A stretch of DNA of 63,585 bases, filler included, from Deltaproteobacteria bacterium (lineage in GTDB: Bacteria; JAUYMQ01), in the NCBI GenBank assembly GCA_030698575.1. It is 11 parts of 11 records of this genome, joined end to end, with 100 filler letters (N's around TTAATTAATTAA, not from the genome) between each part and the next. Parts side by side here need not be neighbours in the genome. Positions count along the whole stretch, not along the records: positions 20,765 to 33,266 come from JAUYMQ010000496.1; 10 more parts are not named here. One strand, given 5' to 3'. Position numbers and translations under genes: made by a program. The notes under the pieces are model-generated. The model was given only the letters and a program-made list of their open reading frames with translations, was not told the origin of the DNA and searched no databases. Position 1 is the first letter of the stretch, and each line of letters opens with the position of its first letter. Shown piece after piece: positions 23,762 through 43,865 of the stretch.

Positions 23762-24481
23762 TTATCTGGAGGATTTTCGCCGGGGCTTTCTGGCACGGGG
23801 ATTCCTGCGCGTCTTCACGGTTTCCGGCTCGGCGAGCGGTCCCGTCTTGTGTTCTCGCAGACTATCAATGATGAAACTCACCGCTTCCTCGGGCTCGTCC
23901 GTCAGGTGAAACAGCCCGAGGTCCTTCCGGGTGATGGTCCCCGTCTTGAGTGAGGTGTTGCGAAGCCACTGGACGAGGCCGCCCCAGTAGTCCTTTCCAA
24001 TCAGCACGATGGGGAAGTGCACCATCTTGTGCGTCTGTATCAGCGTGATCGCCTCGAAGAACTCGTCCATCGTGCCGAAACCGCCTGGAAGAACGACGTA
24101 CCCCGATGCATAACGCGCGAACATCACCTTGCGGGCGAAGAAGTAGTCGAAGTTGATCACGATATCGAGGTAGGGGTTGGGCTTCTGCTCCTTCGGCAGC
24201 TGGATGTTGAGCCCGATGCTCTGGGACGGGCCCTTGCGCGCGCCACGATTGGCTCCCTCCATGAGGCCCGGCCCCGCTCCGGAGATAACCGAAAGGCCGG
24301 CCTTGGAGAGGCGCTCGCCCACCTCCACGGCCGTCTTGTAGTAGGGATGCTTGCGTGAGAGTTTGTTGCTGCCGAATACCGAGATGGCTGGCCCGACCCC
24401 CCGAAGCGTTTCGAACCCCTCGACGAACTCACCCATGATCTTGAAAACCATCCAGGTATCGTGACTCCGGAAGTCTTCCAT
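23762..24481 (-). CDS. LOG family (TIGR00730-type) phosphoribohydrolase
   Basis: GAGPGLMEGANRGA, FFARKVMF, PGGFGTMDE. Confidence 0.95.
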   Translation of the reverse strand: MEDFRSHDTWMVFKIMGEFVEGFETLRGVGPAISVFGSNKLSRKHPYYKTAVEVGERLSKAGLSVISGAGPGLMEGANRGARKGPSQSIGLNIQLPKEQKPNPYLDIVINFDYFFARKVMFARYASGYVVLPGGFGTMDEFFEAITLIQTHKMVHFPIVLIGKDYWGGLVQWLRNTSLKTGTITRKDLGLFHLTDEPEEAVSFIIDSLREHKTGPLAEPETVKTRRNPRARKPRRKSSR

Positions 24482-24820
24482 TGCGGGATCTCTCCTCCTC
24501 TGTTCCACTCGGCGATGCGGCGCCGGCCGCGGGGGGACCCCAAGCTATCACAACGGGCGGGCCGCGCCCCCGCAGGATTCCCACAGGCGCCACCGGAACC
24601 TGGCGGATGGCCTCCGGGCGCTCGAGGCCGAGAAATTCAGGCCGACCTCGTCTGCTTCTACCTTCCGTCTGCAGTCTCAGTCGGGGAGCGGATGGACATC
24701 CTGGACCACCCGGTCGAGGTGAATATGATCGGCGCCTCCCCCGGCTGACGGCCAGGAGGCTTCAGGTCCGGGCGGGGCTCACCGATAGGGAGGGCTCGGG
24801 CGGGGGTCGTGACAATCCGG

Positions 24821-24849
24821 TTGACAACCCCACTTTCCGGGCCTATTGT
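24821..24849 (+). promoter_or_regulatory. Near-consensus sigma-70 promoter
   Basis: TTGACA-N17-TATTGT. Confidence 0.85.
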
Positions 24850-24854
24850 GGGCG

Positions 24855-25570
24855 AAGCATCAGCGCGGGTACCAGAAAGCGCAGCAGATTCAAGGGATTA
24901 TTCCCTCCGGCAAATGTTCGGAGGCAGATTCAGTTCCTGAGCCGCCGAAGGCCCCGCCATGGAGGATGGTGGCCGAAATCGGCGGGCAGTCCGGGAATAA
25001 GGGGATCGGCGGGGCCGAGAAGGAGCCCGCCGGTCGCAGACAGGAGGAGGTTCATCCCGCACGGCTGGCGCACGGACTCGACGGTTCCCCGGGGATCATC
25101 CCGAGGAGAGAGTCCCGAGGCCGGCATGAATGCGCGACGGCTCGATCATTCGGTTGCATGCAGGCGGGTGCATCGGGAAGGGCTGGCGCGGAGTCGGGAT
25201 CAAGCGGGACGGCTTCCTCTCGCATGGCTGGGAATTCTACGCCGGACGGCGCCTTGACTGTAGGGACCGCGCGATAGCGCGACCCGGAGGGAGACCCCGA
25301 AAGGGCTCCCGCGGGCAGCCCGGGGCACCGGAAGGCGAAAGCGGCGGTTATGCCGCGGCGAGACAGTTCAATTCGTAGACTCGGACGAACCCTGAAGGCT
25401 TCAAGCTCCATCCTCGAAGCGGTCCGGAAGGCCGGCCAGGCCGGCCGGCTGTTCGGCGGGGCAGGTGTGGTTTGCCTGCCGTACGCCGTTGCGCTCCGAG
25501 AGGGTTTGTTCGTCGGTGTGCCGGTTTAGAGATTGCGCCGGCGGTACCGGGTCTGACGACTTCTCGCCTG
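24855..25570 (+). ncRNA. Candidate large structured non-coding RNA (about 710 nt), possibly OLE-like
   Basis: Begins at the sigma-70 promoter; 5'/3' closing helix; more than 12 nested helices; GAAA tetraloop; no credible ORF (details under findings). Confidence 0.6.
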
Positions 25571-25807
25571 TCCAGTTCCCTTCCAGCGATAAATTTATTG
25601 CGGCTTTGCCGGATCGGCGCCTTGCCAATTCACGGGCGCCGCCCCCCCCGATCCTTCTCACCAAACACAAACCGCGTTCGCGCCGAGGCGGCTCAAGCCG
25701 CCATCGCCAGGCCGGCGGAGCACGCTTCATAGCGGCTTCGCGGCCGATAGGCACCGGCGCACGGGCCCCCTTCGGGGCGCTCGACGAGACGCTCCAGAAA
25801 GGAAGTC

Positions 25808-28618
25808 ATGGCTGCAACAACAAGGAACAGTGGAGGGGGAACGAGCGGCGGATCGAAGGGACGAGGTGGCGCTTCGCGCTCGCGTGGCCGCCGGGGTGGC
25901 ACACGACGCCGCCGGCCGGCCGGGCAGGAAAGCGGACCGCCGCAGAAGTTCGAGCCGGATCGCGACGCGCGGACCGAGCTTCTCCAGGAGCAGCTCGAAG
26001 CCGAATTTGAGGGTTCCCCGGACTACGGGGATCCGCTCGACCCCGAGGAGGCTTCGGCCGACGACATCGCGGCGGAGCTTTCGCGATCACGACGCGAGGA
26101 GAATGAAACAGCGCCCGACGACCAGAGCGCCTTCGAGGATACGTCCGAGGCGGTCGAGTTCGGCATCGACGGCGCGCGGGGTGGATTCCCCGACGAGGAG
26201 GGGGAAGACGCCGCTCCTTCGGCGGGCGACTTCGTCCATGAATCCGGAGAATCGACGCGGCCGGGGTCGACCTTCAGAGCGCGGGAGACCGGGCAAGACG
26301 CGCGCGGTAGAGATTCTTCAGCAGACCGCGTCGAGGCCCCGGTCAGCGATCGCAGCGGGGAAGGGCGGGATCGCCTCTCCCGGCTTTGGAATGTTCTCAT
26401 TCGCCCGCGCGCGTTTCCGCTGGGGGATCTTGTGCGGGAAGAGGGAGGGGCGCCAGGTTCCGACAGGTGGCTGTTCGCCACGGGCAAGACGGCCGACGGA
26501 CAGGTCGCTGCGGTGGTGGCCACACCCAACGTCGATTCCAATTTGCTCACCGAGGGACTGCTCTTCCTGACCCAGCTCTCCAGGTCGAAGGGCGCGATCA
26601 AGCATCTGTTTCTCTGCGCCCCCTATTTCGAGGAAGAGCAGCGCAAGACCGCCTACCTGGTCGATCCAAAGAAGGTGCGCCTGCGGCTCGTGAGGGTCCC
26701 CTCCGTGGACGAGGGAACAGGGTCGTCGCGCATCGTCGAGACGCTGCGCCCGGAGACGCGCGACACCAGCCGCACGTTCGAGGAGATACTCTCCGAAGTA
26801 CCGGGTCCGAAAACGCGGAACCTTCTCTTCCGATTCAAGGAGGTCGCCGAGGGGTCGCTCGTGGACAGCGGCGGCGAGGGTGTGGTCTGCCGCGGCCGGA
26901 AGATCTATTTCCGGATGCGAGGCGAGGATCTGATCGTCGCGCGCCCCCGTGACAACACGGTGCTACTCGAGATTCTCTATCCGCGTGGCCGGACGTTGCG
27001 GCTCTCCGAGAAAAACTTCGACCAGACCCTTTCGCGAGTCAGGGAGTGCTTCGAGGCGGCGCGAAAGAGCCCCAACCTGCCGAGCCGTGAAGGTGGATTC
27101 CGGCTTGCGGTGCGGGAAGCGCTGGAGACTAGGGAGAACGGCCTCATCCCGCTCGACGCCGAGGTGAGCGTGGGGCCGGGCAGGCTTCGCATCGACGTGC
27201 TGGCGGCCCGGAACGACGGCTCGCCTGCCGCGGTGCAGATTCGCGCCCGCCTGTCGCCGGAGGATTTTGAGCGCAGCTTGCTCGCCTTCACGGCGCTTCG
27301 GGAGCAGGGGACCCTGCTGAAGAAGCTCCTTGGTGATCGTGGCGGGCTGCTCAACGCCGCGGGGGATGCCGAGCTCTGCTTCGTCTCGCTGAACGTGCAC
27401 GAAGGGCTGCCAGCCATCGCGGAACTTCTCGTTCCGCGGGTCACCTTCTTCCGCGTTACGCCCGAGCGGCGCTGGTGGGAGGGGACGCTGAAGCTGACCG
27501 GACCCGGCCAGGCCATCCAGGCGGCGCCGAGCGCCCCTGCAGCGCAACAGTCCGCGGTCCAGCAGGCACCGGCGCCCCCGGTCCGGACACGCCCTGAACG
27601 GCCGAGCTTCAAGATCGAGGGGAAGAATCCGGCCGTTATCGCGAGCCATTACGACAGGGACGGAGTGGTAGGGAACATCGTCCTCTCGCGGGCTGTTCCG
27701 AACGTGGTGGCCCACCGCTTCATGAGCAGCGAGGACCTCATCATTTTCTTCTTCACGCCCGAGGTCCAGGCAACGCTGCCGGAGATCTACGATCTCTTCC
27801 TGACCGATCTCCGTTTCAGGCCCAGCACCCGCCTGTCACCTGAAGTGAAAGAGGCCTTCGTCGAGAATCTCCGGAACTTCAAGGGGAACATCTACTGGAT
27901 CGATCACGTCTACTGGCAGGATTTCGATCGCCGGGAGATTGAGGGCGCCATCGGAAAGAACAACCTCGTGATATCGCCCCGGGAACGAACCGCCGGCCAG
28001 GCTGTCATGAAGGCATTGCGGGTTCGGGACGATTTTTCGTCACAGCTGGTCGAGATGGTGCTCGGCAAGCTTGCTGACGATCCCCAGAAGGCCTGGGGGA
28101 AAGACTGGATCAACATCATCGACTACCTGCGGAACGATCTCGATCGAATCGAATCGGCGATGAAGCCGCTGTACGAGGGGCGGCCCGAGGAGATCGACGA
28201 ATCACTGCGGGACGAGGGGCTGCGGAAAGAGGGCGAGGCGGAGGCCTACGTCGCGAGCCGCGACTTCCGCGTCGTGATCTTCGGTACCTACAAGCTGGTC
28301 GTGGTGGATCTTCCGGAGAAGCAGAGCTTCAACTACACCAGCGTGACTCAGAAGGTGCGCGAGCGTTACCGCGCGCAGCTCTCGATCACGAGCTTTGGCA
28401 ACTCCGAGACCATCATCATTGCCAATTCGTTCTCGAACCGGCAGGTGGTCAACATGATCCAGGTCAAGGATCACCTGACGCGGAAATTTGATTGGCTGAA
28501 GCCCGTCCAGGGGCACGAGAACGTGATCACACTGAAGGTGGAGGGGCTCCTCGAGAACAAGGAGCGTTTAGATCAGGCTCTGAACGAGCTGGTCAGGAAC
28601 CGCTCGCTCTTCACCTGA
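25808..28618 (+). CDS. 936-aa multidomain protein: disordered N-terminus, degenerate PD-(D/E)xK (NucS-like) domain(s), degenerate DHH/DHHA1 domain
   Basis: AAAGGAAG RBS; AEVSVGPGRLRIDVLAARNDGSPAAVQIR; SHYDRDG, LTDL, WIDHVYW, QGHEN. Confidence 0.75.
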   Translation: MAATTRNSGGGTSGGSKGRGGASRSRGRRGGTRRRRPAGQESGPPQKFEPDRDARTELLQEQLEAEFEGSPDYGDPLDPEEASADDIAAELSRSRREENETAPDDQSAFEDTSEAVEFGIDGARGGFPDEEGEDAAPSAGDFVHESGESTRPGSTFRARETGQDARGRDSSADRVEAPVSDRSGEGRDRLSRLWNVLIRPRAFPLGDLVREEGGAPGSDRWLFATGKTADGQVAAVVATPNVDSNLLTEGLLFLTQLSRSKGAIKHLFLCAPYFEEEQRKTAYLVDPKKVRLRLVRVPSVDEGTGSSRIVETLRPETRDTSRTFEEILSEVPGPKTRNLLFRFKEVAEGSLVDSGGEGVVCRGRKIYFRMRGEDLIVARPRDNTVLLEILYPRGRTLRLSEKNFDQTLSRVRECFEAARKSPNLPSREGGFRLAVREALETRENGLIPLDAEVSVGPGRLRIDVLAARNDGSPAAVQIRARLSPEDFERSLLAFTALREQGTLLKKLLGDRGGLLNAAGDAELCFVSLNVHEGLPAIAELLVPRVTFFRVTPERRWWEGTLKLTGPGQAIQAAPSAPAAQQSAVQQAPAPPVRTRPERPSFKIEGKNPAVIASHYDRDGVVGNIVLSRAVPNVVAHRFMSSEDLIIFFFTPEVQATLPEIYDLFLTDLRFRPSTRLSPEVKEAFVENLRNFKGNIYWIDHVYWQDFDRREIEGAIGKNNLVISPRERTAGQAVMKALRVRDDFSSQLVEMVLGKLADDPQKAWGKDWINIIDYLRNDLDRIESAMKPLYEGRPEEIDESLRDEGLRKEGEAEAYVASRDFRVVIFGTYKLVVVDLPEKQSFNYTSVTQKVRERYRAQLSITSFGNSETIIIANSFSNRQVVNMIQVKDHLTRKFDWLKPVQGHENVITLKVEGLLENKERLDQALNELVRNRSLFT

Positions 28619-29001: not shown

Positions 29002-29093
29002 AATATGATCTGGGAGAGGGCTAAAGTCAATATACCAGCGCCCGGGCTCGCCACCATAAGTACTTGACTGAGAGACGGATTTCTCCATAGAAT
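29002..29093. promoter_or_regulatory. Divergent sigma-70 promoters (FmdB gene on minus, greA on plus)
   Basis: Minus: TTGACT-N17-CATATT (29030-29002); plus: TTGACT-N18-TAGAAT (29064-29093). Confidence 0.65.
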
Positions 29094-29265
29094 GATCTCG
29101 CCTCGCCGTGGAATCATCTCCCCGGCGAGGTATCCGTTCAAGCGGCGGTTATTCGAGATCGCCCGCGCCCCGCGCCGATTGTGCGCGGGTTTCGCGTCCT
29201 CCTGCGGCCCGGGTCCGCGCCGGGCCAGTGCCGCATCGAGCGTGGAGCACCAGCGTGGAGCACGA

Positions 29266-29745
29266 ATGAGCGACAAGATTCCGATGACCCGCGAGGGTTA
29301 CCTCAAGCTGACAGATGACCTCGCGCGAATGAAGCGGGTGGATCGCCAGAAGGCCACCCACGACGTCGCAGAGGCCCGGGGCCACGGCGATATATCCGAG
29401 AACGCCGAGTACGACGCGGCGAAGGAGCGCCAGGCGTTCGTCGAAGGGAGGATCCGGGAGGTGGAGCGAAGGCTGGCCCACGCCCAGATCATCGATACCG
29501 ACAAGTTGCCCGACGATCGGGTGGTATTCGGGTCCCGGGTTCGCCTTTCCGAGATCAATACGGGCGATGAAGTGGCCTACCGCCTGGTGGGCGAGGACGA
29601 GGCCGACGTGAAGGCCGGGTTGATCTCCGTCACCTCGCCCCTGGGGCAGGCGCTTATCGGCCGCGAACTGAACGATACCGTTGAGGTGAGGACGCCGGGC
29701 GGCCTGCGTGAATATGAGATCCTCGAGATAGGGCTCAACCGCTAG
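29266..29745 (+). CDS. greA: Transcription elongation factor GreA
   Basis: ARGHGDISENAEYDAAKE, VVFGS, ISVTSPLGQALIG. Confidence 0.96.
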   Translation: MSDKIPMTREGYLKLTDDLARMKRVDRQKATHDVAEARGHGDISENAEYDAAKERQAFVEGRIREVERRLAHAQIIDTDKLPDDRVVFGSRVRLSEINTGDEVAYRLVGEDEADVKAGLISVTSPLGQALIGRELNDTVEVRTPGGLREYEILEIGLNR

Positions 29746-43726: not shown

Positions 43727-43865
43727 ATCGGGATAGGGGACGGCGGGGTTCGCCCCGCCGTTCCCCTCCCACACCACCGGACATGCGGGTCCGCATCCGG
43801 CGGTTCGAAAGGTTGAGGTTACGCGGCGAGCCGGGGTACTCCTAGCTCGTCGAAGTAGCGAATGG
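43727..43865 (-). mobile_element. Group II intron (class IIC) 3' end: RT C-terminus, domain V, domain VI
   Basis: Minus strand: IRYFDELGVPRLAA-stop, then GAACCGCCGGATGCGGACCCGCATGTCCGGTGGTGTGGGAGGGG (DV with CGC triad), DVI hairpin ending CTATCCCGAT. Confidence 0.92.

Follow-up and report, generated by a model that had tools for sequence, protein, structure and literature searches.

Large, intricate bacterial RNAs beyond the ribosome, RNase P and the group I and group II introns are rare, and new classes of them have opened new biology. OLE RNA (RF01071), a large RNA of many helices that contains conserved islands, is hosted mainly by Bacillota, typically extremophiles or anaerobes, and is normally adjoined by the gene oapA. 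The sizeable HEARO (IscB omega) RNA is encoded just before a nuclease-type gene, in the same orientation, and forms a complex with its protein. The ribonuclease genes rne, pnp and rnc of Escherichia coli have long, structured, autoregulatory 5′ leaders, each placing one promoter far upstream of the gene for a nucleic-acid enzyme, and riboswitch and T-box leaders are conserved, folded and tied to one gene family, with alternative purine/CU pairing possible. Here we describe an element that shares features with each of these systems and matches no described family. It occupies the gap (24509–25807, 1299 nt) between a LOG-family gene and a 936-amino-acid open reading frame (ORF; protein P0001) in a genome assembly of a Deltaproteobacteria bacterium (GCA_030698575.1). 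The window, to which all coordinates refer, is the whole stretch of DNA analysed (63,585 nucleotides, 11 records joined end to end with filler), and the gap lies in its part from JAUYMQ010000496.1.

Comparison of related loci indicates that the gap holds a conserved folded RNA of about 0.8–0.95 kb that belongs to a new family, known so far from six loci in a single, poorly sampled lineage. We read this RNA as most likely a structured 5′ leader of about 0.95 kb on the P0001 mRNA, probably cis-regulatory, with a rough probability of 0.55. We infer its transcription, its continuity with the mRNA and any regulatory effect. The element equals OLE or GOLLD RNA in length, is tied to an uncharacterised DHH-like protein and comes from a lineage known only from metagenomes. 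The features on which the argument turns are as follows.

24821–24849, plus strand: sigma-70-type promoter, with −35 TTGACA at 24821–24826, a 17-nt spacer and −10 TATTGT at 24844–24849
25005–25034, plus strand: invariant hairpin hp, with stem 25005–25013/25026–25034 and a purine-rich loop
25017–25024, plus strand: loop of hp, GAGAAGGA, Shine–Dalgarno (SD)-like, predicted 5′ strand of a long-range helix
25652–25659, plus strand: CU box UCCUUCUC, predicted 3′ strand of the long-range helix, inside the conserved island 25641–25668
25796–25810, plus strand: ribosome binding site AGAAAGGAAG and ATG (25808) of P0001
25808–28618, plus strand: P0001, 936-amino-acid ORF, no Pfam family

Relatives of P0001 were sought in a collection of 5.8 billion sequences, from which 8000 candidates were scored. 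Ten proteins, the query included, had E ≤ 0.001, and one of the homologues was labelled by its source as belonging to a Myxococcota metagenome-assembled genome (MAG). An alignment of nine family proteins retrieved four metagenome contigs (L001–L004) and one genome contig, from a MAG (L005), which together with the window locus (W) gave six sequences from about four lineages; L001, L003 and L004 are referred to below as the trio. A search of genome contigs with the single P0001 sequence gave no match, and viral contigs had no match to the nine-protein alignment. For the phylum of the L005 genome (G001), the collection searched contained only two genomes. The other one (G002) carried a P0001-type gene only from residue ~473 onwards, at the start of a contig, and the RNA region was not found in it by DNA search or with the core model described below, whose matches there carried none of the motifs. 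This narrow distribution limits the present weight of the element.

At L001–L005, 725–1056 nt of non-coding DNA extended from a promoter to an AGAAAGG-type ribosome site, followed by a P0001-type gene. The element was kept on the same strand at every P0001-family locus with upstream sequence (W and L001–L005, 6/6). The flanking proteins of the six loci were only 53–58% identical. The leaders of W and L005 had 51.7% identity overall, yet they contained islands of at least 80% identity at 25008–25038, 25242–25261, 25327–25362 and 25641–25668. All six loci contained these islands in identical order, with intervening segments of varying length. The trio was without the first ~35 nt of the 5′ end seen in W and L005. 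No ORF in the gap matched a Pfam family, and a six-frame comparison across the loci found no in-frame conservation; the mutual matches of the trio fell in all frames, with frame switches. The first-pass annotation of this DNA had described the gap as lacking a credible ORF, in agreement with these results.

The promoter matched the consensus at 10 of 12 positions. Two promoter-like sites lay in 24400–25900, compared with 0.2 expected in shuffled sequences, and the second of these was inside the remnant of an upstream gene. The columns TTGACAA and CCTAT..T were invariant and identically spaced in 6/6 loci, and the conserved promoter was the sole promoter-like site in the intergenic regions of L002, L003 and L005. 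The strong promoter of its own (TTGACA-N17-TATTGT) that had been ascribed to the RNA was recovered as a feature invariant in the family. Transcription would start near 24855–24858. Consensus scans of W, L002, L003 and L005, which covered sigma-70-type promoters and U-tract terminators only, showed no second promoter ahead of the P0001-type gene, and no terminator-like site on the plus strand in the stretch that separates the conserved RNA from this gene. The lone terminator-like sites in W and L002 fell inside the RNA, and their count equalled the shuffle expectation. With no second promoter or conserved terminator seen before the gene in these scans, a single transcript with the RNA as its 5′ leader would be the simplest reading. 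The start codon had the context AGAAAGG-N-ATG in W, L001, L002, L003 and L004, and GAAAGGGAGACATG in L005.

Ahead of the −35 element, after the stop codon of the preceding gene, further conserved motifs were present (24760–24815, and the same columns in L001–L005). They comprised a CTCAGGTC-like motif in 5/6 loci and a CGATAGG-like motif ~45 nt before the −35 element, and may represent an operator, an UP-type element or the terminator of the upstream gene. Separately, the AT-rich palindrome ATAAATTTAT at 25589–25598, the sole AT-rich spot in the leader, occurred only in W and was absent from L005.

The same arrangement could be produced by an independent, stable large non-coding RNA that is ended or processed before the gene and acts in trans, or as the partner, scaffold or substrate of P0001 in a ribonucleoprotein. 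The conserved structure was concentrated in 24856–25668, with poor conservation over the final ~140 nt that lead up to the ribosome binding site. Variable modules alternated with invariant islands, as in large ornate RNAs, the neighbouring protein combined an Arg/Gly-rich N-terminus (6/9 family members) with a putative DHH/DHHA1-like fold, and the strict linkage to the gene in 6/6 loci would suit a partnership as well as cis regulation. Set against this are the lack of a conserved terminator-like site or second promoter in 4/4 loci scanned and the lack of copies away from a P0001-type gene, the core model giving only chance-level matches elsewhere in the window, G001 and G002. We regard a separate RNA of this kind as the main rival reading, although a doubtful one; if true, it would be a new ribonucleoprotein candidate.

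Hairpin hp and the helix formed by its loop provided covariation evidence for the leader. The stem of hp had pair probabilities of 0.95–0.99 in W, and across the six loci 92.6% of its cells were paired, including four G-U cells. Two pairs were changed on both sides (A-U/G-C and G-C/C-G). The G-U pairs would be mismatches on the other strand, so the plus strand is favoured. The loop GAGAAGGA was the exact complement of the CU box UCCUUCUC, 642 nt apart, giving eight Watson–Crick pairs in W. The loop-box helix had 7–9 pairs in 6/6 loci, with the box 107–249 nt before the start codon. At its second pair (22–866), W and L005 had A-U and the remaining four loci had G-C, and in L002 an extra loop G was matched by an extra box C. 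Overall, 95.7% of the cells of this helix were paired in a MAFFT alignment in which L002 was one column out of register. When all leader windows were ranked as duplex partners of the loop, the box came first in 5/6 loci and was tied second in W. When each downstream part was shuffled 5000 times, a perfect complement of the loop arose in 16–147 of the shuffles (0.3–3%). The covariation score of hp and the loop-box helix taken together was 0.231, compared with 0.142 for shuffles (0/500 reached the observed value) and at most 0.114 when the partners were slid. Complementarity was thus present in all members and changes were found on both sides, from few independent events.

Because this covarying helix reaches the box, the 3′ limit of the RNA would lie at or past 25659, ~150 nt from the start codon. 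Pairing of the hp loop with the CU-rich stretch before the core was considered as well and dropped, the tail box being the perfect complement in all six loci. The SD-like loop did not appear to serve a small ORF, as no start codon was present 4–14 nt downstream. In the trio, the CU box was followed by G(C/U)GA(C/A)GCA(U/C)UUUU (L001 1000–1010, L003 2306–2325, L004 1299–1315), and in L003 and L004 the box could pair instead with a nearby GAAG or GGAAG, with a U run after it. This post-box feature is a possible attenuator of the trio and is not shared by W, L005 and L002.

The loop is reminiscent of the STAB-SD in the cry3A 5′ untranslated region (UTR), which a review presents (PMC4113751): a purine-rich, SD-like element of a long leader that lies far ahead of the genuine start site and does not direct initiation of translation. 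SD-like elements in such long leaders are described there as stabilising mRNA through binding of the 30S subunit (PMC4113751). The SD-like loop differs from the STAB-SD in having a covarying complement in the same RNA. Because that complement is conserved, the selected partner of the loop would be intramolecular rather than, or besides, the 16S rRNA. The pairing of SD-like and anti-SD-like elements, covarying as it does, is a directly testable feature. In a more elaborate proposal, the RNA would be a new large ornate class (0.7–1 kb), confined to a barely sampled lineage, whose particle is closed by pairing of an SD mimic with an anti-SD mimic over a range of 600 nt and which, instead of being a passive leader, serves as RNA subunit, sensor or substrate of P0001. 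We consider this unlikely.

In DNA, the loop and the box form an 8-bp inverted repeat, and the element might accordingly function at the DNA level, as an extended regulatory region with protein sites or as the inverted repeats of a recombinase or invertase. Both strands scored in the structure tests below, and the further conserved motifs upstream of the −35 element could be seen in the same light. The compensatory changes and G-U pairs, however, were spread over several separate helices, and by inspection the indels removed or added whole hairpins while the closing helices stayed, for example in the 5′ domain of L001. The contigs showed no joints or strand switches, and the ~900 nt downstream of the promoter would be transcribed in any case. 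A function confined to the DNA is therefore improbable.

The remaining domains of the predicted RNA are listed here in order.

24856–25003, plus strand: variable 5′ domain, with hairpin CCUCCG 24904–24909/CGGAGG 24919–24924, helix 24934–24939/24992–24997 and helix CCGCCGA/UCGGCGG
25043–25220, plus strand: middle domain, of varying length among loci, with GGAGGAGGUU 25043–25052/GGCUUCCUCU 25211–25220 and UCCCGC 25055–25060/GCGGGA 25204–25209
25236–25356, plus strand: conserved core, with islands 25242–25261 (CCGG...GCGCCUUGAC) and 25327–25362
within 25236–25356, plus strand: core hairpins CGCGC-GAUA-GCGCG, GGGAG..CCC-GAAA-GGG..CUCCC and GCGGC 25341–25345/GCCGC 25352–25356
25357–25568, plus strand: long-range helix set 25357–25366/25560–25568 (GGCGAGA.../CUUCUCGCC), 25373–25381/25550–25559 and 25382–25393/25501–25512
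inside the helix set, plus strand: variable hairpins, for example GGCAGGU 25460–25466/GCCUGCC 25474–25480

The core was assessed with a structure obtained by RNAalifold from the same trio and L002 rows that were used to test it. In these rows, 91.7% of cells were paired, compared with 42–49% when the partners were slid, and five pairs were changed on both sides, a number reached by 0/500 shuffles. A core model built without W and L005 had its best match in the window at W 25218–25407 (14.1 bits, E 0.018). By inspection, the CCGG core helix was retained in L005, where it was longer by an entire base pair, and only four of its pairs remained in W. The two lineages differed substantially in the inner hairpins of the core.

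The helices of the 5′ domain had pair probabilities of 0.72 and 0.26 in the leader fold, and L005 had, by inspection, a hairpin of different sequence at the position aligned to the W 5′ domain. The closing helices of the middle domain came from the minimum-energy fold of W; they had pair probabilities of 0.96–0.99 at two variant sites, where the strain variants A25209>G and U25214>C preserved the pairs, and L004 had an analogous helix, CGGGAGG/UCUCCCG. Equivalents of the long-range helix set were present in L005 at matching places (GGCGAG/CUGCGCC and ACGAACCCGA/UCGGGUUUGU). Pairing of the arm 3′ of the conserved hairpin (25341–25356) with CUUCUCGCC was ranked top in W and, for its counterpart, second in L005, and was not so ranked in the other four loci. 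SD-like purine elements in the RNA comprised the hp loop, GGAGGAGG at 25043 and, in the trio, GAAGGA after the conserved hairpin; CU-rich elements comprised a segment preceding the core, CUUCUCGCC and the box in the tail, and alternative pairing between the two sets is possible.

In DNA of ~66% G+C, complementary segments alone say little. All nine helices for which the first-pass annotation gave coordinates were complementary and its other motifs were present, but several of the helices were unused in the folds. UCUACG/CGUAGA and GACGAAC/GUUCGUC had probabilities of ~0 both in the fold cut at 25570 and in the leader fold (24850–25812). The terminal helices GAAG/CUUC, UCAG/CUGA, GGUACC/GGUACC and GCGCAG/UUGCGC, which had been taken to close the RNA, were unconserved at aligned positions; their pair probabilities were 0.01–0.99 if the RNA was cut at 25570 and 0.00 in the leader fold, in which CUUCUCGCC paired with GGCGAGA just 3′ of hairpin 25341–25356 and so replaced them. 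With these helices unconserved, covarying pairing that reaches 25659 and no separator before the gene in the 4/4 loci scanned, the discrete RNA of ~710 nt closed by its own ends that had been proposed was not supported; the new class of large RNA that had also been proposed could still be represented by a very long structured leader.

Alignment folding of the trio, compared with column shuffles, gave z −3.2 for the core (structure conservation index 0.81), −2.2 for the 5′ domain and −3.8 for the tail. Variation among close relatives was examined with 31 substitutions within the leader, taken from DNA contigs of four runs; a search of sequencing runs for 24600–25900 returned no RNA run. These variants cost the predicted W fold 13.1 kcal/mol, compared with 34.6 ± 7.4 kcal/mol for random matched substitutions (p ~0.001–0.002). 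One site varied in two runs, giving 32 variant rows, of which 16 were unpaired, eight kept their pair and eight broke it; unpaired positions make up only a third of the W fold, yet they held 16/32 of the rows. In a single contig, A25463>G and U25477>C together converted an A-U to a G-C pair in hairpin 25460–25480. Record 7 of run X3 had no changes in 25215–25383 and 14 in 25384–25477. A conserved, structured non-coding RNA, as first proposed, is supported by the invariant promoter, the lack of a conserved ORF, the compensatory changes and variants that spare the fold. The single-sequence folding energy that was suggested as a check did not add to this, the proposed interval being unremarkable against shuffles.

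A decayed gene, or a GC-rich spacer with random complementarity, would account for that folding energy, for helices that go unused in the folds and for the many helices expected at 66–70% G+C. It would leave unexplained the similar gap length, the invariant promoter and the ordered islands of six loci whose flanking proteins have diverged so far, as well as islands of such identity in otherwise dissimilar leaders with no frame-consistent coding signal. On these comparisons, chance or decay is largely refuted and very improbable.

Several observations weigh against a folded, cis-regulatory leader. The minimum free energy of 24850–25570 had a z of only −1.55, with 1/20 shuffles folding as well, and the minus strand folded with z −2.94. 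Alignment folding of the minus strand scored as well, with z values between −2.5 and −2.9 in the core and in the 5′ domain, and the variant test on that strand gave p ~0.01. In the trio, the middle and 3′ segments, which are indel-rich and poorly aligned, had no structure signal (z ~0). As noted, 8/32 variant rows break predicted pairs. Covariation events were few, given six sequences from about four lineages, and the core and variant tests used structures derived from the same sequences. The trio and L002 model detected W weakly (E 0.018) and missed L005. A leader of ~950 nt is unusually long, and its gene-adjacent tail is the least conserved part. No consistent partner was found that would sequester the ribosome binding site; predictions differed among loci, in which the SD sequence was 32–91% unpaired, and sequestration by the CU box or CUUCUCGCC was rejected as not consistent among loci. 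Taken together, the evidence for folding is moderate to good.

As a cis-regulatory leader, the RNA would be transcribed from the conserved promoter at 24821–24849 and would consist, in order, of the variable 5′ domain, hp, the variable middle domain, the core, the helix set ending in CUUCUCGCC at 25560–25568, and the tail. Pairing of the tail CU box with the hp loop would close almost the entire RNA in the manner of a pseudoknot, and the RNA would probably act in cis on P0001 expression or mRNA stability. Because no conserved helix was found that hides the ribosome binding site, the regulatory mechanism is a matter of inference. One guess is alternative pairing of the purine-rich (SD-like) and CU-rich (anti-SD-like) elements. 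Another guess is that the nuclease-like P0001 feeds back on its own leader; by analogy, such feedback by a phosphoesterase would parallel ribonuclease autoregulation. The rne, pnp and rnc leaders differ in that the leader here is ~2.5 times as long as the rne leader and precedes a gene of a different, uncharacterised enzyme family. Compared with riboswitch and T-box leaders, the RNA is 3–10 times larger, has no ligand pocket or known aptamer (no Rfam match) and has no conserved terminator or ribosome-binding-site-sequestering helix that we could find. A leader of this kind would rank with the longest structured 5′ UTRs of bacteria and would offer a model of how translation or mRNA stability can be controlled over long distances.

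Searches for known RNA families did not assign the element. In a cmscan against Rfam 15 (4227 families), the gap had no match at gathering score, and the only match in the window was a group II intron domain. With permissive filters and E ≤ 10, the region 24400–25900 gave only chance-level matches to mir-572, abiF and ncrMT1302, and none to OLE, GOLLD, ROOL, HEARO, RNase P, tmRNA or 6S RNA. L001–L005 gave, at E ≤ 1, only a chance-level match to whalefall-1 (E 0.65, L003), outside the leader. In the parts of the literature on large and structured bacterial RNAs that were covered, which did not include the supplementary motif lists of surveys, no description of the element was found.

Kinship with OLE RNA had been suggested from the order of short motifs, which received no support from the OLE covariance model. 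The absence of oapA next to the RNA was correctly noted at that stage: the following gene is P0001, a DHH-like 936-amino-acid protein that is not OLE-associated, and then GreA. The locus differs further from OLE in its GC-rich host, which is not shown to be a member of the Bacillota, and in an RNA that seems to run on into the downstream mRNA. A divergent OLE RNA or another described large RNA (GOLLD, ROOL, HEARO, raiA, RNase P, tmRNA or 6S) is suggested by the short-motif order, the size and the GNRA-type loops only; with no Rfam match in the gap or in the related leaders and with such a downstream gene, it is the least credible of the explanations considered. The resemblance to HEARO, a structured RNA that directly precedes a nuclease-type gene on the same strand, likewise has its limits: there was no HEARO model match, P0001 had no RuvC or HNH Pfam signature, and the locus was syntenic and single-copy, with no signs of mobility.

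P0001 comprises an Arg/Gly-rich N-terminus, a middle part of unknown family and a putative C-terminal DHH/DHHA1-like fold, a fold typical of enzymes acting on nucleic acids or nucleotides. The disordered N-terminus was Arg/Gly-rich in 6/9 family members. Neither P0001 nor any of the nine family members matched Pfam, even at E ≤ 1 and with DHH and DHHA1 included, and P0001 had no sequence match in the PDB. The AF2 model of P0001 was poor (mean pLDDT 50.5); Foldseek with this model returned 42 matches with E ≤ 0.001, and its C-terminal third resembled PAP phosphatase (8a8k, E 3.5e-6) and NrnA, GdpP and RecJ-type chains. Atlas structure rows carrying DHH had TM values of 0.66–0.74, and the nearest Atlas structure neighbour of residues 190–569 was a cluster named DUF91 (TM 0.49). 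The Atlas cluster of P0001 had ~221 members. The family shared conserved SHYDRDG and DH(V/I) stretches, which we take to resemble DHH motifs.

The genes around the RNA and P0001 are the following.

23762–24508, minus strand: LOG-family gene (PF03641, E 8e-33)
24647–24739, stop region ~24748, plus strand: remnant of an 881-amino-acid gene, last ~34 codons; context, outside the RNA
29092–29745: GreA gene, next after P0001

An 881-amino-acid gene of unknown family preceded the promoter in L001–L005, where it was intact or cut by the contig end. In the window it was lost save for ~34 codons: in BLASTP, the C-terminus of L005:348–2993 was identical to ORF 24461–24748 at 16/34 residues, the remnant was placed at 24647–24739 by tblastn, weakly (E 0.62), and the DNA of 24646–24829 was collinear with L001, L004 and L005. 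Promoter, leader and P0001 were still together. Because promoter, spacer and P0001 remained intact despite the loss of the upstream gene, the spacer would belong with P0001 and not with the lost neighbour.

At 24640–24750, a rearrangement placed the LOG gene, in opposite orientation, where the 881-amino-acid gene stands in the other loci. A contig of run X3 diverged upstream of 24693, and the junction therefore differs among close relatives. Elsewhere in the window, the group II intron match (domains V/VI) at 43727–43805 on the minus strand scored 40.6 bits, the gathering score being 40 (E 1.5e-4), and probably represents a group II intron or its remnant.

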